DNA from: a virus | Reading direction: 5' to 3' (one strand) | Length of the DNA: 64,000 nt | IMG/VR virus record: IMGVR_UViG_3300027836_000011 | Location: 1,952-65,951 of that record | Shown here: positions 13,301-47,325 of the stretch, piece by piece | Numbering within the stretch: position 1 is the stretch's first letter | How the letters are laid out: every line of letters begins with the position of its first letter | Position numbers and translations under genes: made by a program | Notes under the pieces: model-generated | Seen by the model: the letters and a program-made list of their open reading frames with translations, nothing else | The model's database searches: none | What the model was told of the DNA's origin: nothing

Positions 13301-16300
13301 TCCCCAAGCTTGAGACCATGATTCTAATTGTGAATTAATATCATCTCTTTGTGCTGCAGAATAAATTAATACTGCACCGGCATTATCTCTTTGTACAAAT
13401 AAGTAATCTACTCTAAATGTTGTGAATCCTTTTACAACAGATTGAAATAAAGCAGCATTCTTAATCTTAGTAGGTAATGGACCTGACTCTAATAATGTAT
13501 CTACAGATATACCAAAGTCTTGTAATAATCTTGTTACAACAGCACCAGTCTGTGGATTATCTAATCCAAAGAAGTACATATTCTGTAACATCTTTTTAGG
13601 ATCATCAATATTCTTAACAGCTTTTAATAATCCATTATAAGCAGATGTAAAGTTAATTGGAACAATTAGTTTTACTCCAGGCTTTAATTCTGTATTACCA
13701 AAGTAATCTGTTTCTTCTATAGTTGTTGTAGCCAAATAACTTCTTAGCCCTTCAGATAAGGAACCAAAACCACCAATCATAGACGCATCCATGTTGTATT
13801 GTTCTACATTTCTTAAACCAACTTGCTCTTCAAAATATTCATTATTATATTCTTCTTCTTGAGTTTGCTTAGTTATAATGTTTAATACTTTAAATACTTC
13901 AGATTTTAATTCATCAGAAAAATTATAAAATACCTCATTGATTTGTGGTAAAAATTTCTTTTGTTCATCTGAAAGTTTTTGATTTGATTCTGTTTCTTCA
14001 TCATATAAAGCAGCAAAATCATTCATCACGTTCTCAAGTATGTCCCCACGCTTAACATTAGGGTCTCTTACTTTTTGTATTTCTTGAATATACATAGCAG
14101 CTATACTTGAAACTAAAGGTTCAGCAATAGCACTATCTAAGAAATAGTATCCAATTTTGTTATTAGCATTTTGTTCAGTATCATATGGTAATAATGCATT
14201 AGCTTCTAATGATACACCAGTCATTAAACTGTTGACAAATTGATTTGAATTTATTGACGCATTTTTAAACTTGCCCGCATCAATGTTTTCATATAACGTA
14301 AGTAATTGATTCTTAGTAAAGGACTGGAATACAGACTTAATCCACTCCATAATTCTAGTGAATAAAGACTTAACAGAAGAATCTGTTTGAGTTGATTTTG
14401 CATTTGTTTTAAATTTTTCAAATTCATCAGCCAGGTATTCTTCATAATATTCTTGTTCTAATCTTTCACGGCTCATGTTAGAATAAGTATCTGCTGAATT
14501 TCTGAATCTTTCTAATTCAGCTTCAAAGCTTTTTCCTTCTGCTCTTAACTTAGCTCTTACTTCTTTTCTTGCAATTGCTAAATATTTTGTAATTTCTGCA
14601 TCAGTTAATAGCATTCTAAACACACCATGAAATGCTTCATGATATCTAAATGGAGATCTAGCTCCAGTAAACAATGTTCCATTAACAGTTAATCCTCCAC
14701 CAAGATCATTAAGGTTTAATACAAAAGCACCAACGCGTACACCAGCATTCTTAAGATTATTACCTAATGTTTCAATATCAGCTATAGATATAAAACTAGG
14801 AAGATTGTTTCCGGCCCACTCTGTAAATACATCAATGTCTTCAACATCAGCGGCAGCATCTTCAACAGAAACTATTTTGTTAGCTTCACTTTCTAATTTT
14901 TTTCTTTCAGCTAAAAGATCTTGATACTCTTTGCTTTCCTTAACAGCTTTAATTTTAGCAGCTCCAACTAACCCTTGAGTAAGTTGTGCTTTAAGAATTT
15001 CAAGTTGTTGTTTAACACCTTCTAGTTTATTTAATCTAACACCATTTCTTAAAGCATTAATATCATCTACATTAATGTCTTCAGGATTTATGCTATCAGT
15101 ATTTATTCTATCTGCTTTTTCTTCTGGAGTTACTACATTAGATACATCCGCTTTAGTAGAAACTAATACAGGTAACTTAATTATAACAGAACCATCTGCT
15201 TGGTTAAACAATAATTGTACACCAGGCATTAAAGATGTTACTTGTTCTTTAATTTTATTAAATTCATCTTGAGTAATACCTGTTTGTCTTTCATATAAAT
15301 CTTGAATCTCATCTTCTGTTTTTGCATTTTTAAGTTTCTCTAATGTTGCTTTATTTAATTCAACATTATTAGTTACTGGATTACCATTAACCGTAAGAAC
15401 CTCATAATCTCTTTTTAGATTATTTGCATAAACTCTTAGACCATCTAAAGATATATTTGTTTTCTCTGTATATTCATGACCAGCAGGTAATAGTTTTTGA
15501 ACCTCAGTCATCATACTTTTAAATGAAGCCTTATCACCTGATTTGTTTTCCATTTTGGATGTCCACCTATTTGAAGGAGTAATAACAACATTACCATTGA
15601 CAATAGATTTAGTATAGATTCTGATATAACCCACATAATCATTATCAGATTTACCTGTCATTATAACATCAACAAGACCATTTTCAGGATTAGTGTATTC
15701 AGCAATACCAACCCCATTAACTTCTTTATAAGAAGATATATTAGAATTTTTATTACTACCACCAACTACATCAGCAAATTCAGATTGATCAGGAAATAAA
15801 TCCTTACGTCTATCTTGCATAGGGTCAGCAGCTGTTCTTAATTCAGGTCCTTTAGGAATTGGATTTCCTTGCGCATCTGTAAACATTTCTGTTGGTGTAA
15901 ATACACCTTGTGTAACTACAGGAATATTTTTAGCAGCTTGAATAGCTCCAGAATCAGCAGATAATTGAATTGCACTAACTGATGAAACTTGAGGTGCTAC
16001 TTCAGTTGTAGTTTTTTCAATTATTTCTTGAACACCCGCTTCTCTAGAATATGAAGCTCTAAAGTTTGCAGCTGTAAGATTTACATCAGAAGCAACCACT
16101 GCTGGTAATTCATTAAACTGATCTAATAAAAGTTTAAGTTTTTGATCAACAGATAAATCTTTATTTAAAATATCAGCTTTGTTTAGTCTAACTATACCTA
16201 TTTGTTTATTATTTGAATCAGAAATTTCCAATTCAATTTTACCCCATGGACTTACTTGTAATGAAAGTCTGAATCCTGGTTTAGCACTAATAAATAATTC

Positions 16301-19300
16301 ACTTCTTAAAGCTTTATTGTAATCAACATTAAATCTTTTATCAAATTTCTCAACATTTTTTTCAGGATTTTCAGATAAAGTTAATTGAGCTCTATCCAAT
16401 AATTCAAGAAACTTAGTATTTAAATCAATTGATTTAGCTTTTAAATTTACTAAAGCATAACTACCATCTTGCAATAATACTGCAGCTACATAAGCATCTG
16501 TTAAACTTGTAATGCTATCAAGCATTCCTTGTTTAGTTAAACTTTCTTCAACTCTATCTATAAGCTCTCTTCTTTCTTCACCTTCAAGATTTGATATAGC
16601 AACTTTAGTTCTTGAACCTCCTTTGTTATTTTCTAATTGATAAATTAAATAATTACCATTTTCATCAGCAGATTTAAATTCTAAATCATTTAATGACTTA
16701 GGTGTTTTATCATAAACAGTTATACCTGGTTTAGAAATAAAAGATAAACCACTAGGTAATTTTGAAATTGATATAACTCCATCAGGATTATTTGCTATTA
16801 ACTCAGGTAGTGCAGAACTTAATAAATTATTTAAAGCAAAATTATTTTGAGCACGCTTTAAATCTTCTTCAGTATTTACACTCATTCCTGCAGGAACATA
16901 GATTAAATTTTTATAATCTTCTGCTGTCATAGTAGAAGGATTAATAACAGTACCTTGAGAATTGGTTATTACAAAATTTGTATTTTGCATAAAACCAAAA
17001 ACACCATTTGAGGAATTACTTTTATTTAATCCACTTGCTTCAATAGCAGCATCAATCTTAGCTTGAGTTTCTGGATTAGAAGTTCTTATTCCCACTGAAT
17101 ATTTTGCTCTTACAGTTTGAATGTAAGGGTTTGCTTCTTTAAAACCAGGAATAATTAAATTACCATTGTTTACTCCACCTTCAGGGTCTAATGTAACAAC
17201 TAATTCTAGTTGGCTTAGTTCTTCAGGACTTAGCACTGACATAACTAAGTTATATCTTGCAGTTGCTTGTTCAGGACTTTCTAACCATTGATTAGTTACA
17301 ACATCTTTGTTTCTATAAGCATATGGTTGAATAGGCTCATTTATATTAAGTCTGCTGACATTTTGTGGTAAGACTTTAAGATCTAAAGCTTGAACTGTAA
17401 AAGATGCTTTAAATTCACCCTGTGCAATTTTAAATGAAGCATTTGTTGTTTCATCTATTGATGGGCTAATATCATCAGATGCTATTAACATTAATTTACG
17501 TTCTGTACCTACTTGTTTAGGTTGACTTAATACAATAAACTCTTTACCTGATAAATCATAAACTAACTGTCCATAATTTAAAGTTACATCATCAAAAATA
17601 AATTGTGTTGAATCCGGTGCAGCATTGTCTAATGTTTTTTGCATAGACAAAGCTTTTGCTTTATCACCTTCAGCAAATATACCAAAGGTAGGAATACCAT
17701 ATCTAGTTAAAGTTTCCTCATCAATTGGTTGTTTAGATTGATCTACTAACTGATATGATATAACAGTATTACCTTCTGAGTCAAGAGTTTTTAATTCAAC
17801 TAATGAAACTGTGTTTCCTTTTTTAACTGTTGTTATATTTTTGTTTCCTTCTACAGCTTCTCCTTCATTAGGTAACAATTCTGTTTGACCAGTAACATCA
17901 TCAATAGTTAAACCCAATGCATTAACAACAGATTCTACCAAGTCATTTGTTTTACCTTCCTGACTTTGCAACCATGGGATTAATCCAGCTTCAGTTCTGA
18001 TTTCTTCTTCAGTTAATGGATTATTAGGATTTATTAATTTGTCATTACTAATCCATATTTTTTTAACTGCAATGAAAGCAGCTCTATGATTTTTACCAGA
18101 CTCACTATTAACCCACTTATCAAATGTTACAGGTTTTCTTCCTGCAGTAGTTTCTTTAACTGCATATTTAGCATAAGCTTTTTTCATTGTGTTTTCTAAC
18201 ACAACTGAATCTTTAACTGATACTTCAACATCAATAATTACATTATCCAATATATCATCTACTTCATCTCTGCTTTCTTCTGCTGTTTCCTCTTCAGTTT
18301 TAACTTCTTCTACTTTTTTATCAGGTCTTGTTTGTTCATAGTCAGATAATAATCCCTGAATATCTTCCAATGCTTCTTTGTCAAAAGAAGTTAATTGTTC
18401 TCCTTTTTGATTATAAAATGTTTTTAAATATTTACTGTCTCCAGTTTCCAAAAACATTTTCATTTCAACATTGTTTGGAATATATCCCAACTTTGCAATT
18501 TGATTTGCTAATTCATTTCTCTCAATTACATCAGTATAATCACGTACTTGTTGTTCAAATATTGCCTTTCTGTTTTTGTATTGTTCTTGTAATACTTCAG
18601 CAGTTCTTTGAAATACAAGGTCAAACTTTTGAGGATCATTTAAATACTCAATTGTTTTATCATATACTTTAGCTCTACCCTGTAATGCATTATAATCTAT
18701 AATTTGTTTTAACGCAGCATCAACAGCTTCTTTATTAACAAATGTACCAGATTGTTTAGCCATGTATTTTACATAGTTTTCAAACTCTTTTCTAAGTGCA
18801 CCAATTTTTCTTTTATCAAATGAACCATCTTTAGCTTGATTCTCTTCATTCATTAATATGTTTTTGAATGCAGATAGTCTTTCAACTTTTTCTGTCTTTT
18901 CTTTTACTCTAGCAGTATTAGTTGGATCACCTGATAATATAATAGCTTCTTCAGTTAACATTTGTATTTCTTTGTCAATAGAATTTTGATCTAACAATAC
19001 TGTTAAATCATTAGCTGCCATTTTATCAAACAATGGTTCAGATACTAAATTTTGATAAATATTATTTGATCTTTCCAATGCTCTGGTAAATCCATCTTGA
19101 GTAAACATATAAAGATATCTTGCATGTTCAAATGCAACTTTCTTTATTGTTTCTTCTGTCCATTGTCTAGAACCTTTTTCAAAAGACTCTGGCATAAATG
19201 GATTTTGATATCTATCTTTTGATTGCTCATATACAGTTTCAGTTCTATCAATTTGATTAACCAAACTCTGAAGACGCTCTCTAATTTTTCCATTTTTAAT

Positions 19301-24755: not shown

Positions 24756-27266
24756 TTATGCACCCATCTTTCCTGTATAGAATGGTACTATCATTCTTTT
24801 TATTTCTTTTCCTGATTTACTCTGAGTCTGTGGATAACCTTGTGGTGCACCTCTTCTCTGCATTTCTAATTGAGCATTGCTTATATCAGGAGTTGCTGAA
24901 GGACTCATACCCATATATAATTTTAAGAAATCCATATCAACCTTTTGATCTGGTCCTAAATTTTTCTTTAGTTCAGCATATGAATCTAATATCATTTTTT
25001 GTCTATCAGGTTCTTTTCCAACTTTTTGTAAAGCTTTACCACCTTTAAATCCAATAGGCCCACCTGTTGTAGGATCTATAGCATAGTAATCATAAATTGA
25101 ATTTAGATTATAGGTATTAGCTCTATTAGTAAGAGCAGTATTAAACAGTTCAGCTTCTTTACCTATCTTCCAATTTTGGAAATTATCAGCAGCTTGCAAT
25201 GTTTTTTGTGTATCATCATATACTTTAATGTTTCTACCTTGATTAATTGCATCAGTCTGCATATTCAATTGTGCTTGCATTGGAGCTACCTGATTCATTA
25301 TACCAACATTATTCATATTAGTTCTATTGATAGCTTGTGCATTTGCATCTATTGTTTGACCTTGAATATTTGAAGTAGCCACAGCTTGTGGTCCACCAAC
25401 AGCCCCTAAAGCTTGAGCCATAGTATTTGCAGCTGCTGAATTTGCATTAGCAGCTCCTCTCCAATCATCTAGTACATAATCTATTTTAGCTGGTCCAGCA
25501 TCTGGTGCCCATGGTAAATACAAATTATCATCAACTAAACTTAATGCATTCAAGTTATTTCTATCTTGTGCCCACCATTCAGGTTGAGGTGCAATATATT
25601 CTTCAACTGGAGGAATTTCCAAAGGAGGTCTTGGTTCTGGCGGTACATCAACAGTAAATGTTGCATCAGCTGGTTCAGCAGGAGTAAGTTTAAAACGTGG
25701 AGCATTATAAGTATGCAATCCTAATTTACTATCAAATCCTTGTCCCTTAACATAACCTTTAGTTCCTTTTTCTTTCCAATATGGTACATATTCTTTATCA
25801 TCACCAAATGCGGCAATGTGTTCTTTTCTTCTTGTATCTTCAGCCTTTCTTTGAAACTGTGCCCATTGAGGATCATCAGGTGCTTTGTCATAATCAAATC
25901 CAGGAATAGTTGCCGCAACATCTCCCCATCTAGCTTCAAAATCAGCTCTTGATTCTGCACTTTTAATATCTTCAGAACCATATGCACCACCTGCAGTATT
26001 TTGAAATTCAGGTCTAGTACCTTGTGATAATCTACCAAATTGATAAACACCAATTGGACTTTCATTTATTGCTTTTTCTTGACCTGCAATGTCTTCACCA
26101 TAAATAGATACAGAACCCTGACCTTTTTGATTTTGACCAGCAATTTTTTCTTTAGCTAATTGTGCTTCTTTTTCTGCTTTAAATTTTGGATCTTCAGCTG
26201 CAATCTTTTTAAAGTTATAAGTTTGTTTCCCGTCTACAACAGAACCTTTCACAACTTCAAATTTACCAGAGTCAATCATTTTTTGAGCTTCTGCATATTT
26301 AGGATGATCTTTAGGAAGTGGGTTGACAGGTTTTTCTTTACCATCTTGATACATTGCTATTTCTCTACCATATCTTGCCATGCCTTCATTACCCATAGCC
26401 ATAACATCTTCATCAGCCATAGCCAATTGTTGTTCTTGCATTGAAGGATCTTCAAATGATTGTTCTTGTTGTTGAGGTTGTTGTCCATCAACTTGAGCCA
26501 TCATCTCTTGCAATTGTAATAACTGTTGTTGTTGTTCAGGAGATAATGCATTAAACGCTTTCATCTGAGCTTGCTTCTTAGTGATGTTTTCTACTTTAGC
26601 AGTAAACTCAATTGGATCTTCTCCAATAGAAACTAAGTATGGATGAGCAGCTAATGGCACACCATCTTCAAATTTCTTTTTAAGTTCTTGACCAAATGCT
26701 AATTTAGATAATCCCATCATATTTTTCTTCAACATCATTTCAGAACTACGTGCTGTTATCTCATCTGCAAATTGATCTTTCATTGCACCATAGTACTTAT
26801 TAAGATCATATTTTTTAGATACTTGTGCAGGAGTCATTCTTGATTTAGTTTCTATACCATACTCAGCTAATTCTTCTTGATTAAATCTCATTTTATCTGT
26901 ATCAGAATAAATAAAAGATTGTTCTGGTAAAAACATTGGCACACCACCTTTAGAGTGTCTTGGTCCATTTATATTATATAAACCAAATTGATTGTCATTG
27001 TTTAAATCAGTTAATACAGTTTCACCACCTTCAGCTTCAATGTTTGCTTTGTCCCTAGGTACACCAGATAAACTGTATCTAACAGATTCATCTCTTGTAG
27101 TATTCATGCTAGCATTATTGTAATAGTCTTGAGGTAAAGTAACTAAACCATAACCAGCTTGATCACCAGTCACATAGCCACCCTCTCTCATCATTTGATC
27201 TTCTTCTATTTTACCATTAACTAATTTGAAGCCTGCAGGTAAACTATTTATTTTAATTTTTGCCAT
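24756..27266 (-). CDS. Putative virion cargo protein (836 aa)
   Basis: Contains EAEGGE...GPRHSKGGVP, recalled from crAss-like cargo proteins, plus a Gln/Met-rich low-complexity stretch (~26400-26570) and GG linkers. Confidence 0.55.
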   Translation of the reverse strand: MAKIKINSLPAGFKLVNGKIEEDQMMREGGYVTGDQAGYGLVTLPQDYYNNASMNTTRDESVRYSLSGVPRDKANIEAEGGETVLTDLNNDNQFGLYNINGPRHSKGGVPMFLPEQSFIYSDTDKMRFNQEELAEYGIETKSRMTPAQVSKKYDLNKYYGAMKDQFADEITARSSEMMLKKNMMGLSKLAFGQELKKKFEDGVPLAAHPYLVSIGEDPIEFTAKVENITKKQAQMKAFNALSPEQQQQLLQLQEMMAQVDGQQPQQQEQSFEDPSMQEQQLAMADEDVMAMGNEGMARYGREIAMYQDGKEKPVNPLPKDHPKYAEAQKMIDSGKFEVVKGSVVDGKQTYNFKKIAAEDPKFKAEKEAQLAKEKIAGQNQKGQGSVSIYGEDIAGQEKAINESPIGVYQFGRLSQGTRPEFQNTAGGAYGSEDIKSAESRADFEARWGDVAATIPGFDYDKAPDDPQWAQFQRKAEDTRRKEHIAAFGDDKEYVPYWKEKGTKGYVKGQGFDSKLGLHTYNAPRFKLTPAEPADATFTVDVPPEPRPPLEIPPVEEYIAPQPEWWAQDRNNLNALSLVDDNLYLPWAPDAGPAKIDYVLDDWRGAANANSAAANTMAQALGAVGGPQAVATSNIQGQTIDANAQAINRTNMNNVGIMNQVAPMQAQLNMQTDAINQGRNIKVYDDTQKTLQAADNFQNWKIGKEAELFNTALTNRANTYNLNSIYDYYAIDPTTGGPIGFKGGKALQKVGKEPDRQKMILDSYAELKKNLGPDQKVDMDFLKLYMGMSPSATPDISNAQLEMQRRGAPQGYPQTQSKSGKEIKRMIVPFYTGKMGA

Positions 27267-27268
27267 AG

Positions 27269-29383
27269 TTATAATATTTCAATGTCAGCTCCCGCTGCAA
27301 TTAATTTTGCTAATAAATTTGAATCAACATTTATGGTATTGTTTTCACCACCATATTTGCTCATATATAAACCGGTTGTTCTATCACCTTCACTACCAGC
27401 CGTACCAGTATTAACATCCCACATTCCTCTTTTGTTAAAAGGATCTTCAGCAGTAGCATATTGATAATCTGCGCCTAACTTATTAAAGTTATCTTCTCTT
27501 GCTTGATTAATGTTCTTATCTCTAAACCAATCATTAACAACATCTGCACCTTTGACTGCAAAGTTAGACAATTTTGCATAACCTTGTACACCAGGACTAT
27601 CCATAAATCTATTTAAGTTACCTTCAGCTTTATTTGTTATGTCAACAGTTGGCTGTTGAAATGCAGGTGCAGCGGGAACAGCCGGTTGTACTGGAGTACT
27701 AAATGTAGTTACATCTGGTTGTTTAGTATATCCTGCTGTATCAGCATAATTAGCAGTCTGTCCAAATCTTGGATCATTCATACCAAAAGGATCATTGAAA
27801 TTAAAATTTGGAGGAAGTCCAAATTGAGCTTTATCTAAGTCACCACCGTATTTAAATCCTTGTTTAAGATAAGCGTCATATTCAGATTTAAGTTGTTCTT
27901 CATTTTTACCTTGATTTCTTACTGCATCTCCTGTAGCATACCAATCTTTAAATGATTTTTGTGGAGTATCAGTAACTTTATTATCCATCATTGATGACAT
28001 TACCGGTGGAGTTTTAAACATACCAGGTAAAGGTTGACCTGTATTTCCTGTAGGTATCATTGCATTTTGATTAACACCTAATTTATTATTACCCATATAA
28101 GTATCATATTCATAAGGATTATCAGCACCAGGTCTATAAGATGAAGCTTGACCATATCTATCAATACCAAGTCTGGTTCCCGTAGGATCATCCTTAGTAT
28201 CCATTATCATAGCCTTAGTATCTTTATCCATATTACTTAAGTAATTATAATCTTGACCAGCTATTGCATTTTTTTGAGCATCTGAATTATAAACTCTTTC
28301 ATCTATTGGTCTACTGCTAGTAATAAAATTATAATCATTTGAAGCAGTATCATAATTAAATCTAGAGTTTGCCGCTACATCTTTACCATATTGATCAACA
28401 GTTCTTAAGTTACCTTTACCTTTTGCAGTATTGTATAGATCTGTATTATCAGCCATGTATTTATTTGGGTCATTTACATCTTGAGTTATTTTGTAATTAT
28501 AATAATCACCTTTAGTTGCATCTCTTATTCCTGCTTTCTTAGAACCATCTCTAAAGAAACCATCTTTAACACCATCTTTATCAGCATCATCACCACTTAA
28601 AAATTCTTTATAACCACCATAAGCTACAGCAGCTGCTTTACCCAAACTAAAATTATCATTGGTATATTCAAATTCCATTGGATTAATATACAAAGGAGCT
28701 CTTTGCCAATTGGTTTGTTTTTTTACATAAGCATTATTGACTGCCCCTACTTTACCTTGAGGAGTGCCACCCATATCATATTTCTCACCACCATCTTCTT
28801 TTTTCCAACCAGCAGCATTTTTAGCAAAGTTTGCCATCTTAACTACAGATGTAGGATATTCATCAGTATTAGCCATAACCTTACTTGCAGCTTCTTGTAC
28901 AGACATACCCCGTGCTTCAGCCCATCTAGTAAACTTACCTTCATTCTCAGGTTTAATTTCTATACCTGATTTACCCATAGACATTCCTGGTTCTTGAGTT
29001 TCTTCTTCTGACATATCATCAGAATGCATACTCTCATCTTCAGTTAATTGTTGTGAGGTTTGATCTAATTGATCAACAGGCATTGGTTCACCACCAACTT
29101 GTTCTTCTGGTTGTTGACCTTCACTCATTTGTTCAAACAATGACATAATATCATTTTCCTCAAAACCATTCATCATTAGAGCTTGACCAATAGTCTGTTG
29201 ATCAACTTGTTGTTCAATCAAAGACATAACTACTTCTGCAGCATTTTGTCCTTGACCTATTGCTTGAGAAATAAAATCTGAAATTTGTTGTACAGCAGGA
29301 TCTACTGCTTGTTGTGGTTGTGCCTCAACTTGTTCAGTAGTTTGTCCTCCTTCTTGCTTTAAACTTATTTTGTTTACTTTCAC
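27269..29383 (-). CDS. Putative virion cargo protein (704 aa, GTG start)
   Basis: Q/E-rich N-terminus; internal module IEIKPENEGKFT...ANFAKNAAGWKKEDGG; C-terminal LLAKLIAAGADIEIL; several (K/R)xxGG linkers. Confidence 0.55.
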   Translation of the reverse strand: MKVNKISLKQEGGQTTEQVEAQPQQAVDPAVQQISDFISQAIGQGQNAAEVVMSLIEQQVDQQTIGQALMMNGFEENDIMSLFEQMSEGQQPEEQVGGEPMPVDQLDQTSQQLTEDESMHSDDMSEEETQEPGMSMGKSGIEIKPENEGKFTRWAEARGMSVQEAASKVMANTDEYPTSVVKMANFAKNAAGWKKEDGGEKYDMGGTPQGKVGAVNNAYVKKQTNWQRAPLYINPMEFEYTNDNFSLGKAAAVAYGGYKEFLSGDDADKDGVKDGFFRDGSKKAGIRDATKGDYYNYKITQDVNDPNKYMADNTDLYNTAKGKGNLRTVDQYGKDVAANSRFNYDTASNDYNFITSSRPIDERVYNSDAQKNAIAGQDYNYLSNMDKDTKAMIMDTKDDPTGTRLGIDRYGQASSYRPGADNPYEYDTYMGNNKLGVNQNAMIPTGNTGQPLPGMFKTPPVMSSMMDNKVTDTPQKSFKDWYATGDAVRNQGKNEEQLKSEYDAYLKQGFKYGGDLDKAQFGLPPNFNFNDPFGMNDPRFGQTANYADTAGYTKQPDVTTFSTPVQPAVPAAPAFQQPTVDITNKAEGNLNRFMDSPGVQGYAKLSNFAVKGADVVNDWFRDKNINQAREDNFNKLGADYQYATAEDPFNKRGMWDVNTGTAGSEGDRTTGLYMSKYGGENNTINVDSNLLAKLIAAGADIEIL

Positions 29384-29400
29384 GGTGTCTACATTATATT

Positions 29401-29429
29401 ATTAATATACAAATAAATCTATAGATTTA
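29401..29429 (-). promoter_or_regulatory. Putative late promoter motif GTATATTAAT preceded by a perfect 16-bp palindrome
   Basis: Motif at 29401-29410, 17 nt upstream of the GTG start. TAAATCTATAGATTTA at 29414-29429. Confidence 0.45.
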
Positions 29430-29443
29430 CTAATTTTTAAGGT

Positions 29444-32400
29444 TTAAGAATTGCCTACAATATAAGTCATTATATAATTTGCAGTAGTCATTCCTAACTC
29501 TTTTGCTTTACTATAGTAAATTCTATTTAATTTATCATAGTTTTTTATTGCTAGTTCTTCATTACCAATATTACCTTTTATGTAATCTTTATACATAGTA
29601 ATATTAGTAGAATTTAATTGCCCACCAAATTGTTTTTTATTTAAAGATTCAAGTATACGTGGATCTAAATTAGCCTTTGGTATTGAATCAGCAACTCTTG
29701 TTCTTGATCTTGCATCTACCAATTCTCTTGAAAAATTATAATCTGGTGATTTAGCTTGATAATATCTTGGGCCATTTGGTGTATCAACTTTTTTTGTAGT
29801 TACAACCACTTTACCATTTTGTTCTGAATATTTATTTTCACCACCTTGTTGTTTCATATACTCAACAGATCCTCCCATTTTCTTTTCTGCTGGTAGTCTA
29901 TTGTATGCTTGCATTAATGGTCCCGGTTTTGATTCACCACCATCTCTAAAACCATATAATGTTTTTATTGGTTTATTTTTTTGATTACCTAATGCTTTAG
30001 AAAAATCAGTGTTAAAGGTAGTGTTTTTTTGTAATAAAATATCATTTATATAATCTCTTGGTTCTTTGGGTAATTTACTTATCCAATCTAAATTATTATA
30101 AATGTCAACACCTTCTTCTTTTAAATCATTCAATAAGTTCATAACATTACCACGGCCCCAATTATAAGAAGCTAATGTTTTAGCTAATCTTACATCTTCT
30201 GATTGACCGGGTTTATTAATAAAACTTGAATTATATAATTCATTCATTGAATATTTTTGGACATCTGCATTTTGTTTCATATTAAAAGGATCAACATTAC
30301 CTTTAATATTGTTTGCCTTTTTATAATCTTTAATCACAGCATCTCCAATTTGACCCAAACCTTTATATCCTGCAGGTGAAACTGCTTTAGGATTAAATGC
30401 AGATTCTCTATATGCTTGTCTTACTAAAAGCTCTGGAGTTATTCCTTTAGGTTTAGCAGATGTTTTTGCTGGTTCAGCTTTTAATTCAGTAGAATACCTT
30501 TCCCCTTTCCATAAGAAATCAGAATCACCCTCATTGCGCGCTGCCCTAAAAGCTTCTTTAAATGTAGATTTATCATCATATCTAGAAGTACCCCAATTTG
30601 CTGGATTTAAATATGCAGTCCAAGAAGTATCTTCTTTCTCACCACCATCTTGCCTTCTAGTTAATTTATTTGTATACTTGTTTATATGAGCGCGTGAAGT
30701 ATTTTCCCAAGCTTCAGGATTTACTTTAATTGATTTTAAAGTTTCTAAAACTTTTTCACCTTCTTGTCCTTTAATTGCATAATGTGAAAAAGGATCTAAT
30801 TCACCAAAAAGATTTTTACCAAAAGCTTTCCATACATCAGAATCACCATAAACACCTTTTGCTATATCTTTTAAAGGTAAAACATCATAATACTTTTGTG
30901 TTAAATCTTTTTTATTTTCTAAATACTTTAACTGCATTTTATCAAAAAAGTTAGGAGCATCCCTTACAAAAGGATCATCACTTATTATATTATTTCTGTA
31001 GTTTGCATCAGTTCTATATTTTAAATCACTAATTAAATTATTATGTTTTCTCCAAGAGTCCTCTGCTAACTGATTATATAAAGCTTCTTTTTCTTTTACT
31101 GCAACTTGTAATTCTGTCATTTTATTAGGATCTCCTGTAATAGCAAGAGTTTCTCTAACATTTGTTGGAAATCTTTTTATGTAATCATTTTTAACAATAC
31201 CTTCTCCAAAAGGTGAACCTTTAAAACCAAAACTTGGATCAAAGTCATTAGTTGTCAACCAGTCTTGTCTATTTCCTGATGAAAAATCTGTTGGTCTTTT
31301 TGCTTTAACAATATATCCATTTCCATATGTATATCCTTCTGCAGTTGGAACTGAGTTTGATAAATATAATGCATTCTCACCTTCCTTTAAACCAAACCTA
31401 CCATAACCCGTATTCATAGGTATATGTGTTGACATATATTCTGCTGCTGCTTTAGAACCTTCTTCCGTTGTAAGATTAAACCCTTGACCTTCAAGATACT
31501 TTATTATTTCTGGATTTTTTTGACCAAGAATATCCCAATTAGTACTTACACCTCTAACAAAAGTATTGTGTCTATCAGCTAATCCTCTTATAGTTCTATT
31601 GGTAAGTTCATCAGATTGTGCGATTCTTTCTAAATTTTCTGGTAATTTATATCCATATTTTTTTGCCCAATCTTTTGCATAAGTTAAATCATTTAAATTA
31701 TTTGATACAATACCAGTTTTATTTACAGAAGAACCAAAAGATGGTCCTGCTGTTTTTAAGCCTTGTCTTAACTCAGGAGCTATACTTGTATTAATATTTT
31801 TTAATGAGCTGTAACCTTCCCCAATAGTTTTTGTAGCAGGACCAAGTACAGGTAGACTTTCAGCTACGTCCATTGCTACATTAAAAGCATTTTCCCAAGA
31901 TGGATTTTTATACATTTCTGCAGTATCAGGTCCAATATGAGTTAAACCATGTCCTGCAAATCCTGCAGTAATAGCATTACCAACAGTAGCTCCAGGAACA
32001 GTTGCCATACCAGGTAGTTGAGTAGCTAATGCAGTTGAAACATATGGCGCAGCTGCGGTACCTACTGCTGTTAAACCAGCAGCAGCAATTGGAGCAAGAG
32101 CAATTGCACCGGGTGCATAGAATAAAGGATTCTTTACAGCATCTTGCATGTTATTATAAACCACTCTTTTTCTACGCTTTGTGTTCTCTGCATTAAGCAT
32201 ATCCTGTTGCCATTCAGGTAACTTTTCAATTTGTGCTTGTTGAGATTCACTTGTAAATCCTTCAGGTGCTCTTAAATCATGATACTGTTTAGTTGCCATG
32301 AACTGATCTTCTTTACTCAATCCCTTTACAGGTTTCTTTAAAGGAAATGTAGCATTTGTTTTAGGATCAAAACCAAACTTACCAGTATCAATTTGTTTAT

Positions 32401-32947
32401 TGATCCACTCATCTGATCTTTGGTTACCTGTAAAAGAAATATAGTTTCCACCTTTAGTTGTAGATGTTACCCATCCTTCAGGAGTTAATGTATTACCTAA
32501 CCATTTTGTTTCTTTCCCTTTCTGAGCTTTCATTAAACCTTTACCACCACACTTATGACAATCCATAACATCAGATCCACCATCAGCAGCTTTCCATTTC
32601 CAACCGCAGTTACCACACTCAATAGTTTTATCTAATAGAGCACCTCCCATTTTGGCTATTAATGTTTCTGTTACTTCTGTACCTGGAAATTCATAATCAT
32701 ATCCTGGATACATTACTTGCTCATTACCTAAGTTATCTACACCGTGGATTGGTCCCTTTCTCAAAGGGCTACCATCTTTTTCTTTCATAGTAATAGAACC
32801 AGATGGAATAATGTTTTGATAATTATTTACATCTGGGCTATCCATTCTAAATCCTTCTGTAGAGAATACTCCTGTAGTATAACTAAACATTTCATTTGGG
32901 CCACCCGGTAATCCTCTACGTTCTGTATGTTGTATCTTTTTCTCCAT
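29444..32947 (-). CDS. Modular virion protein (1167 aa): Zn-ribbon, hydrophobic segment, ART-like domain, lytic transglycosylase (SLT) domain
   Basis: CGNCG...CHKCG (~32546-32618); Ala/Gly-rich hydrophobic stretch (~31850-32130); FVRGVS...ALYLSNSVPTAEGYTYGNGYIV (~31300-31570); SLT motifs LLVRQAYRESAFNPKAVSPAGYKGLGQI and LASYNWGRGNV (~30140-30430). Confidence 0.7.
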   Translation of the reverse strand: MEKKIQHTERRGLPGGPNEMFSYTTGVFSTEGFRMDSPDVNNYQNIIPSGSITMKEKDGSPLRKGPIHGVDNLGNEQVMYPGYDYEFPGTEVTETLIAKMGGALLDKTIECGNCGWKWKAADGGSDVMDCHKCGGKGLMKAQKGKETKWLGNTLTPEGWVTSTTKGGNYISFTGNQRSDEWINKQIDTGKFGFDPKTNATFPLKKPVKGLSKEDQFMATKQYHDLRAPEGFTSESQQAQIEKLPEWQQDMLNAENTKRRKRVVYNNMQDAVKNPLFYAPGAIALAPIAAAGLTAVGTAAAPYVSTALATQLPGMATVPGATVGNAITAGFAGHGLTHIGPDTAEMYKNPSWENAFNVAMDVAESLPVLGPATKTIGEGYSSLKNINTSIAPELRQGLKTAGPSFGSSVNKTGIVSNNLNDLTYAKDWAKKYGYKLPENLERIAQSDELTNRTIRGLADRHNTFVRGVSTNWDILGQKNPEIIKYLEGQGFNLTTEEGSKAAAEYMSTHIPMNTGYGRFGLKEGENALYLSNSVPTAEGYTYGNGYIVKAKRPTDFSSGNRQDWLTTNDFDPSFGFKGSPFGEGIVKNDYIKRFPTNVRETLAITGDPNKMTELQVAVKEKEALYNQLAEDSWRKHNNLISDLKYRTDANYRNNIISDDPFVRDAPNFFDKMQLKYLENKKDLTQKYYDVLPLKDIAKGVYGDSDVWKAFGKNLFGELDPFSHYAIKGQEGEKVLETLKSIKVNPEAWENTSRAHINKYTNKLTRRQDGGEKEDTSWTAYLNPANWGTSRYDDKSTFKEAFRAARNEGDSDFLWKGERYSTELKAEPAKTSAKPKGITPELLVRQAYRESAFNPKAVSPAGYKGLGQIGDAVIKDYKKANNIKGNVDPFNMKQNADVQKYSMNELYNSSFINKPGQSEDVRLAKTLASYNWGRGNVMNLLNDLKEEGVDIYNNLDWISKLPKEPRDYINDILLQKNTTFNTDFSKALGNQKNKPIKTLYGFRDGGESKPGPLMQAYNRLPAEKKMGGSVEYMKQQGGENKYSEQNGKVVVTTKKVDTPNGPRYYQAKSPDYNFSRELVDARSRTRVADSIPKANLDPRILESLNKKQFGGQLNSTNITMYKDYIKGNIGNEELAIKNYDKLNRIYYSKAKELGMTTANYIMTYIVGNS

Positions 32948-35900
32948 TATCTCATTGATAAAAGTAATTTAGTGTTATTCAATCTCAATAACATCTTTCT
33001 ATTTTCTGATTTAACTCTTCTTAAAATAACATTGTTATAATAATGTCTAAACTTTTTATGTTGTAACGGAGCCTTATTATAATTTAAATTTGTAGTATTT
33101 AAAACTTTAATGTATCCATTAGGTTGAGTATCCCATATTGATTGTTCAACGTTTGTAAATTCACCTCTATCATTAGTGATATCATAAAACTGATTGAACC
33201 TATACTTCTGTTCAACTTTAGAACATAATATGTTTATGTTATTCAAATTGACTATTGGATAACTTAACTCTAAGATAGGATTGTTATATGGTGTTGGAGT
33301 CAATTGTAATAACCCAGACACTTGCTCATTATTATAAATAATAGATTGGTCAAAGTTAAAGTTTAAATCTTCCCATCTATCATCATTACAAGCATAACCC
33401 ATATCACCTTTGTATACATAAGTCTCTAATTGATATTCCATACTTCTAACAGTATTAACCATCTGTCCAGTATTAGAAACTAATTCTACTTCCCAAGGAT
33501 AATCAACACCATAGAAATTAGCAAAACTATCACATCTAACATTATGTCTCCAAAATGAACCAACTTTGTAATTAGCTGGTGTAGACTCATATTTATAAAA
33601 ATTACAAATTTGAGGATTTGGATTTACATATGTTGGATCTCCTAGTAAATAAACATCATCACAATTTCCTGTTGTTGTTGTAACACTTCCTGGAGGAGAT
33701 GTTGGACATGCGCAACTTACTTTTCTACATACAGGTGGAGTAATGTTATTACATGTACCTGTTGGTGATGTATAAAGACTTGTTGCTGTATTAAAAAATA
33801 CTTTTGTATAACCTGGAGCACAAGTACAAACAAATGGAACTGAACAAACAGATCCTGCAATAGCTGTTGCTACAGCAGCAAATGTTGCAGGCACAGCCGC
33901 ATTAATTCCAAATTGGAATCCATCAACATTTACAGGACCTGGCGTACAAGATATATTACCTAATACATTACCACTTGGTATAGCAGTATTTGCACCACAA
34001 AATAATGCATATACTCTTTGGTTTGTTGGACCACTTGCACTTGGTGAAACACCAGTACCTTGAAATGGACAACCTATATTTCCCGGATCACTTGTTGTAT
34101 CTGTAACTAATATTATTATTTGTCTAAAAAATGGTTGTGTACTTCTATTACCTAATTGACTAGCTGCTTTATTATTTAACAATGTTTGACCAGAAGTCAT
34201 TCCTAAAGAAACATTTGTACCACCACCAATCCAGTTACCATTATACCATGCAGCAGCTTGAGCTGGAGTAACAGTATTACTCATAGACCAAGTACCCCCT
34301 GCAGGATTTGGTATATTATAATTTATATTATTACCACTCCATGAAGTAAAACCTATCTGCATTGTACCTGCAGCCATTGGTGTTGTTATATTAGAATCAC
34401 TTAAAAATGCATTTAACCATGCTAATTGTGCTTGTCTGCGTCCTCCTGAATTAGTTGATCCAGATGTATCCATTGCAATAACAATATCTATTAAACAATT
34501 AACTGGTCCACCATTAACAACAGAGTTAATTTGATCTACTGTAACAAAAGCAGGTTCATTAATATTAATAGATCTTTCACATAATCCATTAGTAGAATTA
34601 AAATTATATCCCGGAGGGCATTGCGGTATAGTAGTAGCCATAGTCTTAGTAGTAAAGAAATGGTTAATACTTGGCAATGCAAATTCCGGATGCCAGTCAT
34701 GGAATGATATCCAAGCTTTAGCTTTAGGATCATAACTTACAGTCCAAGAACAATCATCAAAATACACTGGATCACCTAATGTAATAGGGCTCTCTAATAA
34801 TGCAAAGCCTCTTTTTTCACTATATGTTACATTTGCAATATACTGAGCTTTTACTCTGTAATCTTTTTTCATAAAGTAAACTACATCATCATTAGGATCA
34901 TAGATTGTTTGACAACCAACACCAACTACAGGATTATCTGATAATGGTGAATCTTCTAATTGAGGAAACTGTTTAACAAGTTGAGATGGTAAATATTTAT
35001 TAAACCACCATTTCATTCCTGCATTAGATATTGGATCTAGTGTTTGACCAGTAAAATGAAATATTTTCCCTTGAGCTTGAGATATAAAAAATAAACCTAC
35101 AGGTGTATTCATAACACTTCTCAAACTTTCACATGAACCATATTCATTTGATATGTCTGAGTTAACAATATTTTGAAATGGTTGACTAAACAATCCTCCA
35201 TCACCAATAGTAAGTTTAGTATCTAGTTGTGTTTGCAAAGTATCTAAACCTTGAAACATCTGAGGAGATAAATAAGGAAAGAATATAATAGCACCGCTTT
35301 TATTAATTGGTTTTATAACACTCACTTCATTTATAAAATCCTTATAGTTTAATGGTAAGAATACTCTCCAAAAATCTTTTTTAGATTCTTCTTGAGCTTG
35401 TAATGAATAGATTAATCTTTTTGGATAACTGACATAACAATTTTCTGCAACATACGGATCATAGTATCTTGGTTGTATTTCACCAAAACTACTCAACTGA
35501 GTTACAAACTTAGATGGACTTAATGATTCATCATATTTATAAAAGTTATCTTTCTTTTCTATTTGAGCATGGAACAATTCATCAATATCATTATAACCAT
35601 ATACATCATATATTCTTGCATCAGCTCTATCTTCCCAATCTCTATTAGCTAAGTTAACTTCAGACTCAACAAAGAAATCTAATATACCATTAACATGCGT
35701 ATACATATAAGCATATCTCATGGCAAATTTAGGATTAGGATCACCACTAGCACCAAAGATTGCACTTAAACCAGTAGCACAACTATTTGATCCTCTATCT
35801 AAATAAAACAAATCACTAGGAAAAACAGCATCTAATTGACTAGAACTTGTAAGACTTAAACTAGCAATTTCCCCAGCCAAAGTACTCATATCAAATTTTT

Positions 35901-38900
35901 GAGAATTTAACCAAAATCTTGGATAAGGTATATTGACATGCTGAGAATAATCATATGTAAATTCATCTGGTTGACCTAATAAGTATTGTGCAAATATAGG
36001 CATGATAACTTTTTCAGTATATCTAGTAATAAATATATCACCATTAAATATAGCTGAACTAGAATACTTAAATGCCATTGGTTTAGTTGGATCTAAATAT
36101 TCTACGCAACCTCTCATTTGAATTTGCTTAATACCATCTAATTGACCATACTGATTATCAAAATTAAACTTAAGTGCACCATAGTAAGCAGATATAGTTC
36201 TTTTTTGTTTTGTTGATGGATTAGTTAAATAATCATCACTATAAACATTAACTGTACCATTAGCATTTACATCACCCCCTATGGTAAATCTAGACACATC
36301 AATTACAGTAGGTTCTGTTATAGGTTTATCTAATGAAACAGCTACGGTAGATGGTCTAAATAAATTATTAATTTTATAACTTCCATTATCAAATGATTGA
36401 AATGATTGACCTAAGTAATTTGAATCTGTATTCTTGATTCTAAATAACCCTGTATTAATTTTAGTAAATGAATTAAAAAATCCATAAGAATTATATTTAA
36501 ATGCAAAATCAGATTTATTAATTAAGTTATAAATCAATTCTAATATTTCATTTCCACCAATTGCTATATTAGTTCTAGACATTGTAAAAGAAACAAAAGC
36601 TCTTACAATTAAAGGTAAAGATGATTCTGATGAATCATTTGATTGTGCATTATTTATTGTACCACCTAACATACCAGGTGCATTACCAGCATTGGTTTGA
36701 ATAACAGCATTTGCCATATCTAATGCATATGTTGCAGCACCACCAACATAAAGATCTGCTAAACCTGCAGCATTATTTAATAATGTATTTAAAGCTATTT
36801 GACCAACAGTACCTACATTTGCAGCAGCAGCAACAGCAACTGAATAAGCTGCTTGTGCTACACCCGGTGAATTTAAATAACCTGAAGATTTTCCAAGCCA
36901 TGCACCAGTTGCACTTGCAGAAGTCATATTTGCTTTAGCACCATCTACAGTTTTAGTTCTTGTACCTAACATTTTATGTATAGCATATCCCACACCAATA
37001 ATAGAAGCTATAATAGCTGCACCATTTCTTAGTAATTTAAATTGAGGATGATCTTCAGATGCTTTAAAATAACCACTTGAATTACCACTTACTTGTCCAT
37101 AAAGTCTTGTCTCATAAGCATTTAAAAAAGGTTTAGTAAACATTAAATCTGGTGAAGAAAACGTAAATACATTTCTAGAATAACCTGAAGGTTCACCTGC
37201 TATTGCAGGAGCAGAACCTAAAGGTCTATAACTACCAATTGATATACTATAATTATCACAACCTTCAGTTCTATGAATAGAGTTTGCATTACCATCATGA
37301 AAGTAAACATCAGGTCTTAAATCATTGTATGGATAGTTTGGATATAAACCTTGAACAGAACCACCAATTAAATTTTCAGCATTAGGAATAGTATACTTAC
37401 GCATATTTCTAAACAATCCTTTTGCTAAAATAGATTTGGCACCAGCTCTAGTTCCTCTTAATATTTCATAACCAACTATATTTGTTATATATGTTCCATC
37501 ATTATTTTTTGGTCTACCAATATTAGTAAATTCAACACCAAGAATATTAATTAAATCTCCTTGTGTTGTACTTATATGCAAAGGTGAATTTGCACCCCCT
37601 ACTTCTTCAGTAGGAAACTTATGGTGTCTAATTGGTTTACCACAAAGGTCTCCCCAAATATCAGGTCTATTAGCAGGATATCTTTCTGTTGATTCCCAAT
37701 ATCCCATTTTACCTCTAGCAATAACTAATGATCCATCTGCTTGCACTTCAGTTAAATTCTGAGCTGTAATGTTTCCTGTATTATAAACCTTAAATAAAGG
37801 ATCTCCTGCAACATCTAATACATTATCACCATAGATAACATCATTTTCTAAATAAGTCCCTGAAGGGGTTGTAAATGGCTCAGGAGCTCTTCCTGGTATA
37901 TGATATGAAGAAGATCTTTCTCCTGTGTTATAAATCCATCTAATAAAAAAAGCATATTGCTCATCTCTCATGAAACCCATTTTATTACCACCTAAATGAT
38001 AATAAGTAGAATCTATTTGATTTGCTACCCAGTTAACTTTAATATCATTTGCTATTGGTTGATAATTAAAATCAAATTGACTAACAGGTCCTTGTCTAAT
38101 TAACCAATCATTTACAACATACATTGCATTTGATTTTTCATAAGCAGGACTTCTTTGAGGTATAGTTTTTAAACTTATAGCTACTAGAGCATCATCAATA
38201 TAGTCAATGTTTATATCTTCCTGTTGCGTACTATAAAGACCTATGCGTTTTGCATATACTTGACCTTGATTTCTTACAAGTAAAACCAATTCATAATAAT
38301 CAAAATCTTTATCTAAATTAGTAACTTTAACATTTAATGATCCTCCTGTACCGGCATGTGACCATAATGTTTGAATGTTAGATACACCAATATAATCAGT
38401 AACCTTTTGCTCATTTTCAGTATATGCAATAAATGCTTGATAAGCACCATTTTGTAACATACCACCATCTATTGATTTACTTAAATCAACACAAGGAGTA
38501 TCAAGTAAAGGAGCTAATCTTATCTTTTCACAATTTAATTGTGTTGTATCAGCATATGTAATACATGGATCACCAACTGCAGATGTTACAGTTTGAATCC
38601 ACGGTACCTTATCAATGTTTAATGAACGGGATGGATTGTTTCCATCATCCCAATATGTTTGCCATGTACAATCAAAATTTTCTTTTGCTGCACCAGTTAT
38701 TAAATACTTTCTATTAAAGTTTAAGCAAGGATCATTTACAATAACTTCATACTTACATTGGCTATCATCAAATCTTCCAATTTCTGAATTTACATCATCT
38801 GTAGAAAATACAACCCATTGATCACCATATCTATGTATAGCTCCAATAATTGTATAAGGAATTACACCACATTGTAAATTAGATGGTTCATTACCAATTA

Positions 38901-45954: not shown

Positions 45955-45984
45955 CAAATATATAACTTATTTACTATTTCCAAA
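45955..45984 (-). promoter_or_regulatory. Bacteroidota-type sigma70 promoter (-33 TTTG / -7 TATATTTG)
   Basis: Minus strand TTTG (45981-45984), an 18-nt spacer, then TATATTTG (45955-45962), upstream of the 94-aa gene. Confidence 0.5.
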
Positions 45985-46423
45985 ATGATTTATCAATTAT
46001 TTTATTTCCATTAAAATTTTGAATAACCATATTTTTCATTACATCAATATGTCTTTGAGATACTTTGCTTATAATATAATCTATAATATCTTGTTTTGTT
46101 AAAGTGTTATAGTCACTTGTTTCTACTTTATTAGGAGTATCTGGAGTTTTAGATATTAGTACTGTACCACTTACACTATGTGTTTGATCAATAAGAGCAC
46201 CTGTAAATTCATAGGTTATTTGAGAAATAACATTAGTTAGGTTATTGATTTCAATACTTTCAATATCCCAGCTATAATTAATCTCAATAATTGGTTCCTC
46301 TATAAATACAGGTTTCACAATCTTACTTATTGTTTTAACTTTCTTAACGGGAGTTTTAACAACAGGTTTCTTTTCTAACACTTCTTTTTTTACAGAAGTT
46401 TTCTTAACAGTTGATTTTCTCAT
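45974..46423 (-). CDS. Tail-fibre-associated small protein (149 aa), probable paralog of 47005-47325
   Basis: Lys-rich N-terminus, then YSWDIESI...V.S.I.YEFTG...DYNTLTKQDIIDYI, parallel to YTWFIASL...VVYKVNWKYSA...PYDQLTKEQIISWL. Ends TAG then an in-frame TAA. Confidence 0.45.
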   Translation of the reverse strand: MRKSTVKKTSVKKEVLEKKPVVKTPVKKVKTISKIVKPVFIEEPIIEINYSWDIESIEINNLTNVISQITYEFTGALIDQTHSVSGTVLISKTPDTPNKVETSDYNTLTKQDIIDYIISKVSQRHIDVMKNMVIQNFNGNKIIDKSFWK

Positions 46424-47004: not shown

Positions 47005-47325
47005 TTAATTTTCAAATGGTAAAGGTGGTGTAACGTCTACAGGATTTACAATCAAGTTTATTTGATTATCCAAATCAGCAGTTAATGCTGGAACATCTAA
47101 ACCAGCCTCTAACCAACTAATTATTTGTTCTTTAGTTAATTGATCATAAGGTGTAAAATCTTCTAAACTTGGTAGTGCTACAAGTAAACCACCATAAGTT
47201 AAAGCCATTACCCCATCTTCATTAACAGCACTGTATTTCCAATTTACTTTGTATACAACATCTTGTAAGTTGTCTTCATTTATTTTGCAATCTAATGATG
47301 CAATAAACCAAGTATATGTGTTCAT
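47005..47325 (-). CDS. Tail-fibre-associated small protein (106 aa)
   Basis: Directly downstream of the chaperone-bearing fibre gene; small acidic protein. Confidence 0.45.
   Translation of the reverse strand: MNTYTWFIASLDCKINEDNLQDVVYKVNWKYSAVNEDGVMALTYGGLLVALPSLEDFTPYDQLTKEQIISWLEAGLDVPALTADLDNQINLIVNPVDVTPPLPFEN

Follow-up and report, generated by a model that had tools for sequence, protein, structure and literature searches.

No phages are more abundant in the human gut than the Crassvirales, which are also common in the sea, and to our knowledge a single structure is the only source of information on how they deliver proteins into the host. In polymorphic toxins (CdiA with its VENN motif, Rhs with its DPxGL motif), conserved ends are combined with a variable payload, and a short peptide marks the exchange point; the Rhs motif is also cleaved. 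MARTX toxins carry effector arrays in which a cysteine protease domain of the toxin itself cleaves the sites between the domains, and the consensus of adenain, the protease of adenovirus, is (M/I/L)-x-G-G-x. Here, we analyzed a stretch of 64 kb, called the window below, which comprises positions 1,952 to 65,951 of the 74.9-kb IMG/VR record IMGVR_UViG_3300027836_000011 and represents the virion module of a crAss-like phage. The study concentrated on three genes that follow the gene for the muzzle protein and encode proteins of 1167, 704, and 836 amino acids (aa), designated P0001, P0002, and P0003. P0001 and P0002 are strings of autonomous modules, each of which ends in a conserved peptide, the seam tag (K-x-[Q/K]-x-G-G-[E/Q/D], with the variants K-A-Q-x-G and K-[YF]-G-G). 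The system joins three known themes, namely the crassvirus cargo protein C1, the polyvalent proteins, and the junction motifs of polymorphic toxins.

The closest counterpart is gp45 of Bacteroides phage crAss001, a packaged and ejected protein whose gene also lies directly behind the muzzle gene. The agreement extends to the gene order. On the minus strand of the window, the muzzle gene is followed by the genes for P0001, P0002, P0003, and proteins of 1058, 4707, and 1927 aa; the crAss001 order is gp44 (muzzle), gp45 and gp46 (cargo proteins C1 and C2), gp47, gp49, and gp50 (RNA polymerase proteins). The three cargo genes are separated by gaps of 2–60 nucleotides (nt). This synteny, together with the SLT domain of P0001, which is typical of internal virion proteins, suggests that P0001, P0002, and P0003 are packaged and ejected cargo proteins. 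In contrast to crAss001, the cargo is spread over three genes and contains enzyme cassettes (SLT, and in homologs LysM, YkuD, SET, and ART). The structural study of crAss001 does not mention a tag, module exchange, or cleavage (Bayfield et al. 2023, PMC10172136).

Polyvalent proteins (Iyer, Burroughs, Anand, de Souza, and Aravind 2017, PMC5512222) are likewise large, mosaic multi-domain proteins that are delivered with the DNA, and they share domains with the proteins analyzed here (ART-PolyVal, found in the homolog P0034, SLT, and other peptidoglycan enzymes). They differ in that the MPTase-PolyVal model was not matched here and that a zincin motif is found on a separate protein of 4707 aa. 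A conserved junction peptide is not reported in that paper, in which the words "linker" and "glycine" do not occur. With polymorphic toxins the locus has in common that a conserved junction motif borders an exchangeable payload, but several cassettes and junctions are present per protein, not just one at the C-terminal tip, and phage ejection takes the place of secretion. As in MARTX toxins, exchangeable effector modules reside on one polypeptide with similar short linkers between them; however, a C80 domain was found neither in the genome nor in its relatives, and the tags are candidate cutting sites only. The packaged and ejected proteins of the giant phages phiKZ and SPN3US also share a short motif, which is reported to be a proven cut site of a T4 gp21-like protease (PMC10052503, PMC5694885) and is not known for module swapping, whereas no S77 or S78 protease was found here. 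The initial annotation of the window, made from the sequence alone, had drawn an analogy to adenovirus and African swine fever virus, whose Gly-Gly sites are those of adenain and pS273R, respectively. This analogy did not hold beyond the Gly-Gly dipeptide itself, which delimits segments of virion proteins in both cases: the adenain consensus misfits most of the sites, the flanking consensus is different, a clan-CE protease was not found here, and those two are viruses of eukaryotes. A published description of the tag was not found in a search that did not reach many subscription papers.

The mosaic nature of P0001 became apparent from its 284 homologs, which are 80–90% identical over 12–35% of the length and have many different architectures. 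They combine SLT, LysM, YkuD, PG_binding_1, SET, ART-PolyVal, DUF5754, and DUF5872 domains with the same terminal modules, and the C-terminal module of P0001 forms the C-terminus of most homologs, whatever precedes it. Matches of P0001 to the phage collection were confined to short pieces. The ends of homology coincided with the tags: 42% of 452 internal BLASTP breakpoints were located within 6 aa of a GG dipeptide, compared to 9.8% of random positions, and this value was not reached in any of 5000 permutations. In an all-versus-all comparison, the respective fractions were 24% and 10%. The breakpoints piled up at aa 99–110 (AKMGG), 136–179 (KAQKG), 761–786 (RQDGG), 990–1013 (FRDGG), 1033–1037 (KQQGG), and 1097–1118 (KQFGG). 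Neighbouring homolog alignments overlap within the tag, which is therefore a junction shared by both blocks. In an alignment of 32 sequences of the mosaic family, G768 and G769 were near-invariant, a property found in only one further column, Y875. Multi-stretch matches to P0381 and P0487 were discarded as spurious matches to TPR and cadherin-like repeat proteins.

The exchange of blocks could be followed among near relatives, for which eight phage contigs with flanking genes 75–88% identical to those of the window were available. Their P0001 orthologs have lengths of 539, 575, 857, 1326, and 1403 aa (2184 aa in a more distant one) and differ by whole blocks that were gained or lost at tags. 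In two of these relatives (L007 and L003), KAQxGKE is fused straight to the EDTSW block, which in the window follows RRQDGGEKE and is found 620 residues later. In L003, LLAQTG and KMKLGG enclose an additional block of roughly 100 aa, exactly at the IAKMGG joint, and a cassette of 190 aa is inserted at exactly the same joint in the homolog P0075. In addition, the block that separates KKMGG from the last joint is missing in L003, where this joint follows KKMGG after at most 10 aa. As a separate observation, the middle module of P0001 (aa 400–769, 30641–31750) had no match in Pfam, and its nearest neighbours in a language-model feature search of a protein atlas were ART-PolyVal clusters (score 0.80, a lead only). 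The homolog P0034 contains a true ART-PolyVal domain (PF18760) elsewhere in the chain.

For P0002, 631 homologs were found, and a family alignment of 121 sequences with identities down to 37% was generated. The N-termini of family members start at or just ahead of the N-terminal tag (MGGQ..., MQEGGQ...). Slot 1 (aa 196–206) harbours inserts of 28–240 aa in 41 of the 121 homologs. They represent at least seven unrelated cassettes, each of which starts after x-x-G-G and closes with its own x-x-G-G. In the window, slot 1 is empty (KKEDGG-EKYDMGG). Slot 2 (aa 509–513) harbours inserts of 43–161 aa in 24 homologs, placed at aa 509–511, and a third insertion hotspot at aa 569 lies in a Pro/Gln-rich stretch without a tag. 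The GG columns are 90–99% conserved at 37–45% identity. The values are 97% and 90% for GG 198/199 and 99% for both G513 and G514, which were invariant in an alignment of homologs. In SKYGGE, where no indels were seen, the two glycines and the glutamate are conserved to 98%, 94%, and 98%. The last 14 residues of P0002 (aa 691–704, 27272–27313) showed no variation among 64 aligned homologs, and AGADIEIL forms the end of 119 of the 121 members. This segment could be an anchoring helix; in crAss001, the muzzle has been reported to bind an unassigned helix of 14 residues (Bayfield et al. 2023, PMC10172136).

In a search of 1.84 billion proteins, the module in front of slot 1 (aa 136–199) matched 1948 cluster representatives at E ≤ 1e-3. 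Its end could be located in 137 of the best 146 cluster representatives, the clusters being separated at 50% identity. In these 137 representatives, F-A-[KR]-N-A-x-x-W is followed by [KN]-[KH]-x-x-G-G, with conservation of 80% and 91% for the two glycines, and then by unrelated sequence. The module itself (28787–28978, I-x-I-K-x-x-N-x-G-K-F-T ... F-A-K-N-A-x-x-W) has no Pfam match and looks like an undescribed, very widespread cargo domain of crassviruses.

Cassettes have also moved between the two genes. The slot-1 cassette (190 aa) of P0186, a protein of the 704-aa type, is 72% identical to the block at the AKMGG joint of P0075, a protein of the 1167-aa type, and both copies terminate with K-K-x-x-G-G. 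A second block common to the P0001 and P0002 families begins with G-G-x-x-P-K-A-Q-x-G in both. The composite tag G-G-x(1-4)-[LIVM]-x-K-A-Q-x-G was present in 50 of 120 members of the P0001 family, 98 of 121 members of the P0002 family, and 16 of 121 members of the P0003 family. The window contains it twice, in P0001 (aa 134–146) and in P0002 (aa 513–522), at two of the strongest exchange points. Residue counts around GG in the P0001 family gave K at positions −4/−3, either Q or K at −2 (Q at 5.4 times background), and E at +1. A signal at the DNA level was not found in the tags. The copies use differing codons, with GGT as the usual glycine codon (66%), and have at most about 8 nt in common, so that the constraint acts on the peptide. 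Taken together, purifying selection on the protein maintains the tags, which mark the points at which modules were inserted, lost, and transferred, even between two genes. This bears out two proposals of the initial annotation. The GG sites had been placed at domain borders, and the module borders of the homologs indeed fall on the tags, with whole blocks gained or lost there in the P0001 and P0002 families. The sites had also been suggested to be recombination joints for interchangeable modules, which is backed by the ortholog blocks, the two slots of P0002, and the cassette common to both genes. The payload predicted to be injected is thus organized in cassettes and evolves as genes and phages exchange modules, and the shared tag allows the automatic parsing of large unannotated cargo proteins into modules.

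The third protein turned out to be different. P0003 is a conserved, non-mosaic protein with one cassette slot, and most of the 120 homologs listed align over the full length; of the three cargo proteins for which segmentation had been proposed, two, P0001 and P0002, are built from swappable modules. The slot, at MYQDGKE, contains inserts of 28–101 aa in 29 homologs. In orthologs, this site reads MYQDGGE or MYKEGGE, and in distant members LSKAQFG. This variation shows a single tag in three dialects, Q-x-G-K-E, x-x-G-G-E, and K-A-Q-x-G, in agreement with the earlier view that KAQKG, KAQFG, and YQDG are related variants. The GG dipeptides of IEAEGGE and HSKGGV are invariant parts of a folded domain and not linkers. 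A tblastn search with P0003 against 50,697 phage records gave no result. All 121 members of the family end with P-F-Y-[TS]-G-K-M-G plus one residue (24759–24785 in the window), and nine of them end with KMGG. The C-terminus of P0003 is conserved to the degree of a catalytic site.

The twin-GG arrangement is not confined to relatives of the phage in the window. P0002 (aa 136–213) could be aligned with residues 369–446 of crAss001 gp45, including both GG pairs (hhalign probability 74%, E 2.8e-5; BLASTP 1e-4), and the common module corresponds to gp45 aa 375–424, just ahead of the portal-bound domain. The module is also present in the gut crassviruses cr127_1, cr128_1, cr108_1, cr118_1, and 'Rudgehvirus jaberico'. 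In gut crassviruses, the first cargo protein contains more GG than its composition predicts, and gp45 contains [AK]-[YF]-G-G four times (0.18 expected), each time as A-[YF]-G-G and at the edge of a resolved segment. The tags of gp45 have their ends at aa 210, 333, 428/435, and 563. For the P0003 family, hhalign did not detect similarity to gp45, and phmmer searches with P0002 and P0003 against the PDB yielded no matches. In the virion of crAss001, gp45 residues 425–552 were resolved as a single portal-bound domain (Bayfield et al. 2023, PMC10172136; PDB 7QOG, 7QOI, 7QOJ, 7QOL, and 8CKB). The resolved stretch starts with A425-F-G-G428 and runs through G434-G435, and a helix at residues 214–245, which is attached to the tail barrel, starts four residues after A-Y-G-G 207–210. 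According to the text of the paper rather than its coordinates, the homologous twin-GG joint of gp45 (aa 427–435) is continuous in the virion. The features of the window are compiled in Table 1.

Table 1. Positions of cargo genes, seam tags, and further virion genes in the window (aa, residues of the respective protein)
Feature	Position	Strand	Description
Muzzle gene	32947–39057	minus	PF25731
P0001, 1167 aa	29444–32947	minus	mosaic cargo protein; parts in order: N-terminal module, Zn ribbon, variable middle (hydrophobic + ART-like lead), SLT, short modules, conserved C-terminal module
Joint IAKMGG	32642..32659	minus	P0001 aa 97–102; N-terminal module / Zn ribbon; 39 breakpoints at aa 99–110
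Composite tag GGKGLMKAQKGKE	32510..32548	minus	P0001 aa 134–146; left border of variable middle; 71 breakpoints at aa 136–179
Joint RRQDGGE	30638..30658	minus	P0001 aa 764–770; right border of variable middle, start of SLT module; 57 breakpoints at aa 761–786
SLT domain			P0001 aa 829–941; PF01464
Three-joint cluster	29837..29950	minus	P0001 FRDGGE (aa 1000–1005), EKKMGG (1021–1026), MKQQGGE (1031–1037); 40 and 25 breakpoints
Joint KKQFGGQ	29618..29638	minus	P0001 aa 1104–1110; before conserved 58-aa C-terminal module; 57 breakpoints
P0002, 704 aa	27269–29383	minus	cargo protein; GTG start, relatives use ATG at the same site
N-terminal tag LKQEGGQ	29342..29362	minus	P0002 aa 8–14; GG 85% conserved
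Three-helix module (about 65 aa) and slot 1	28766..28978	minus	P0002 aa 136–199, ends with W-K-K-E-D-G-G; then empty cassette slot EKYDMGG (aa 200–206)
Composite tag FKYGGDLDKAQFG	27818..27856	minus	P0002 aa 510–522; cassette slot 2
Tag SKYGGE	27344..27361	minus	P0002 aa 675–680; before invariant 25-aa C-terminal tail
P0003, 836 aa	24756–27266	minus	conserved cargo protein
MMREGG	27177..27194	minus	P0003 aa 25–30; N-terminal GG site; G 94%, G 94%; no indel observed
Joint MYQDGKE	26334..26354	minus	P0003 aa 305–311; sole insertion slot of the family
C-terminus TGKMGA	24759..24776	minus	P0003; tag-like natural protein end
4707-aa protein	7355–21478	minus	single chain; one HEAFH...EEYLADEFE zincin signature in addition to the crass RNA polymerase region
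HEAFH zincin motif region	14623..14655	minus	about aa 2275–2285 of the 4707-aa protein; HEAFH at aa 2280
Major capsid protein		minus	PF23898
Portal, ring proteins 1 and 2		minus	found in scans of window open reading frames

We assign a probability of about 50% to the hypothesis that the tag is a module-end cap and a hinge, which insulates the modules for folding and threading and makes tag-to-tag recombinants viable. The tag would usually follow the last helix of a module and cap its end, and it would let the modules fold, unfold, and thread in series through portal and tail. For crAss001, an N-to-C threading of the cargo with partial unfolding has been proposed (Bayfield et al., PMC10172136). 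As all modules share the same ending, any in-frame recombination from tag to tag would be expected to yield a viable chimera. Thereby the payload would remain exchangeable, including many unknown blocks as well as SLT, LysM, YkuD, PG-binding, SET, and ART. The evidence at present speaks for an uncut tag in the assembled virion, and tags that stay uncut would clearly exemplify, in nature, how standardized connectors render proteins recombinable.

Several points weigh against a cap and hinge. A passive hinge has no obvious need for conserved K, Q, L, and E near the glycines, and the composite tag of 11–13 aa resembles a recognition element, which favours a partner, either a protease or a docking site. 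The tags were found in stretches of low predicted local distance difference test (pLDDT) values, 1–10 residues after predicted helices, but the claim that tags follow helices is weak because both AlphaFold2 models are poor (mean pLDDT 43.7 for P0002 and 42.1 for P0001). About 58% of the breakpoints in the P0001 family are away from any GG, e.g., at aa 346–417 and 815–836, and the homolog counts represent non-independent events. Lastly, the uncut state in the virion rests on one distant phage, one joint, and the text of the paper.

A tentative alternative is that the tags are processing sites of a protease. Cleavage would take place most plausibly after ejection, by the co-injected HEAFH zincin or by an enzyme of the host, and would release modules that act in the periplasm (SLT, LysM, and YkuD) and in the cytoplasm (ART and SET) from one precursor, a scheme that has been proposed for polyvalent proteins and demonstrated for MARTX toxins. 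Cell-wall enzymes occur together with a module resembling ADP-ribosyltransferases within one polypeptide family. It would also be in line with the observations that unrelated cassettes each retain their own C-terminal x-x-G-G, that the conserved residues are mainly N-terminal of the junction, and that tag-like natural termini exist (proteins of the 836-aa type end with G-K-M-G-x, and many of the 704-aa type start with MGGQ or MQEGGQ). Processing of polyvalent proteins by a zincin has been predicted (Iyer et al. 2017, PMC5512222), and giant phages are reported to cut their ejection proteins at a short motif. The zincin motif of the 4707-aa protein is intact, and HEAFH and the downstream EEYLADEFE are kept in four relatives at 87–89% identity, so that the zincin stays a candidate enzyme. 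It is the only protease-like candidate nearby, and nothing ties it to the GG sites: the MPTase-PolyVal model PF18818 had no match in the genome and left the HEAFH region unrecognised, a GG specificity is not known, and the 4707-aa giant, the most obvious polyprotein, has no tags itself.

The searches for other proteases also speak against processing. Models of the clan-CE families C5 and C48 had no match at E ≤ 1 in the record (estimated completeness 65%) and four relatives (one of them 100% complete, with 118 kb and terminal repeats), and the models of the C39 peptidase, the S77 and S78 prohead proteases, and the C80 cysteine protease had no match in the same records. Pfam scans of the open reading frames (ORFs) of the window revealed no protease apart from the Peptidase_S74 self-cleaving chaperone of a tail fibre. 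Evidence for cutting at the tags was not found. The continuity of gp45 across its twin-GG joint argues against cutting in the assembled virion of crAss001 and is silent on events after ejection, and the virion gel bands of crAss001 at 85, 100, 150, 270, and >300 kDa would be compatible with uncut cargo. The initial annotation had considered the linkers as protease sites and/or recombination joints; its second half was confirmed, and its first half was neither shown nor refuted. Tentative as well is the more specific version, in which a zincin or another enzyme is dedicated to cutting at K-x-Q-x-G-G and K-A-Q-x-G after ejection, in a MARTX-like injection of multiple effectors that would be conserved from marine to human-gut Crassvirales. 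If the tags were cut, they would belong to a new processing system without a recognisable protease.

It is improbable that the tag is an address, i.e., a linear motif that is bound by the portal, ring, or muzzle proteins or by an assembly factor and places the modules in the cargo zones of capsid and tail. Such a role would be consistent with the conserved L, K, A, Q, and G positions of the composite tag, with the fourfold [AK]-[YF]-G-G of gp45, and with the ordered portal-bound stretch of gp45 that begins exactly at A425-F-G-G428 as well as the barrel-bound helix soon after A-Y-G-G 207–210. However, the modules are covalently tethered, so that one tag per module seems needless for loading, and tags also stand beside remnants of 7–10 aa that leave nothing to load.

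Still less probable, and in our view very unlikely, is a mere by-product of recombination, in which the tags were copied with the flanks of cassettes by microhomology-mediated recombination and the peptide has no role. The junctions of near relatives could be explained by 6–9 nt of shared sequence, e.g., AAAGAA or GGTGGTGA, and the short remnants between tags resemble scars. This is opposed by the differing codons of the tag copies with their at most about 8 shared nt, by the conservation of GG and its neighbours like core residues at 37–45% identity and across 137 clusters, and by the recurrence of the tag in distant gut crassviruses.

The frequency of the motif within the window was compared with 5000 shuffles per protein. 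All 12 GG positions listed in the initial annotation were found to be exact (32642-47, 30641-46, 29936-41, 29870-75, 29840-45, 29621-26, 29345-50, 28787-92, 28766-71, 27842-47, 27347-52, and 27177-82). The numbers of GG dipeptides match the composition, with 10 versus 9.6 expected in P0001, 7 versus 5.9 in P0002, and 7 versus 5.6 in P0003. In P0001, K or R occurs at positions −2 to −4 of 9 of the 10 GGs (3.4 expected, P 0.008). P0002 contains 5 basic-preceded GGs (1.6 expected, P 0.02) and 5 GG[EDQ] (1.3 expected, P 0.006). In P0003, basic-preceded GGs were not enriched over the shuffles (2 versus 1.7), and the enrichment is thus restricted to the first two of the three ORFs. The neighbouring proteins of 1058, 4707, 1927, and 2036 aa showed no enrichment of basic-preceded GGs over shuffles either, in accordance with the earlier remark that the pattern is missing from the neighbours. 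Tag patterns exceeded shuffles 4–30 times in the P0001 and P0002 families, and no such excess was seen for the P0003 family and for control ORFs of related loci. The enrichment within the window alone is modest, the motif having been defined after inspection, and the comparative evidence is decisive. That the K-, Q-, E-, and G-rich linkers of an AT-rich genome yield such strings by chance can practically be dismissed, although the GG count equals the expectation from composition and the motif was defined after viewing the sequence, in the face of a breakpoint permutation P below 2e-4, neighbours and control ORFs without the pattern, column conservation of 90–99%, slot cassettes ending in tags, and GG conserved across 137 cluster representatives. 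Further candidate interpretations were dropped with no supporting gene or feature, namely Pup-like GGQ/GGE ends, a sortase-like LPxTG resemblance of L-P-K-A-Q-x-G, cross-linking of K and Q by a transglutaminase, and internal translation starts at ATG codons before GG.

The phage stems from environmental metagenomes and is probably of marine origin, and Tara matches among the homologs of the cargo proteins point to marine relatives. Immunity genes were not seen beside the cargo genes among ORFs of at least 100 aa, and the cargo genes have no ORF of this size between them. The muzzle protein contains a block of about 200 aa (aa 1523–1725, 33885–34493) that begins with LIDIVIAMDTSGS, is VWA-like, and is missing in the orthologs of three relatives (L003, L005, and L006). 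Its junction comes after V-N-G-G-P-V-N-C and not after a K/Q tag. At the end of the cargo block, the 1927-aa protein (1571–7354) contains a PD-(D/E)XK nuclease domain (PF12705, E 1.5e-6). A Gly-rich protein of 884 aa (47327–49981) carries a C-terminal Peptidase_S74 intramolecular chaperone, which is typical of self-cleaving tail fibres or spikes, and DUF7936 was found on two small neighbouring proteins (45974–46423 and 47005–47325).

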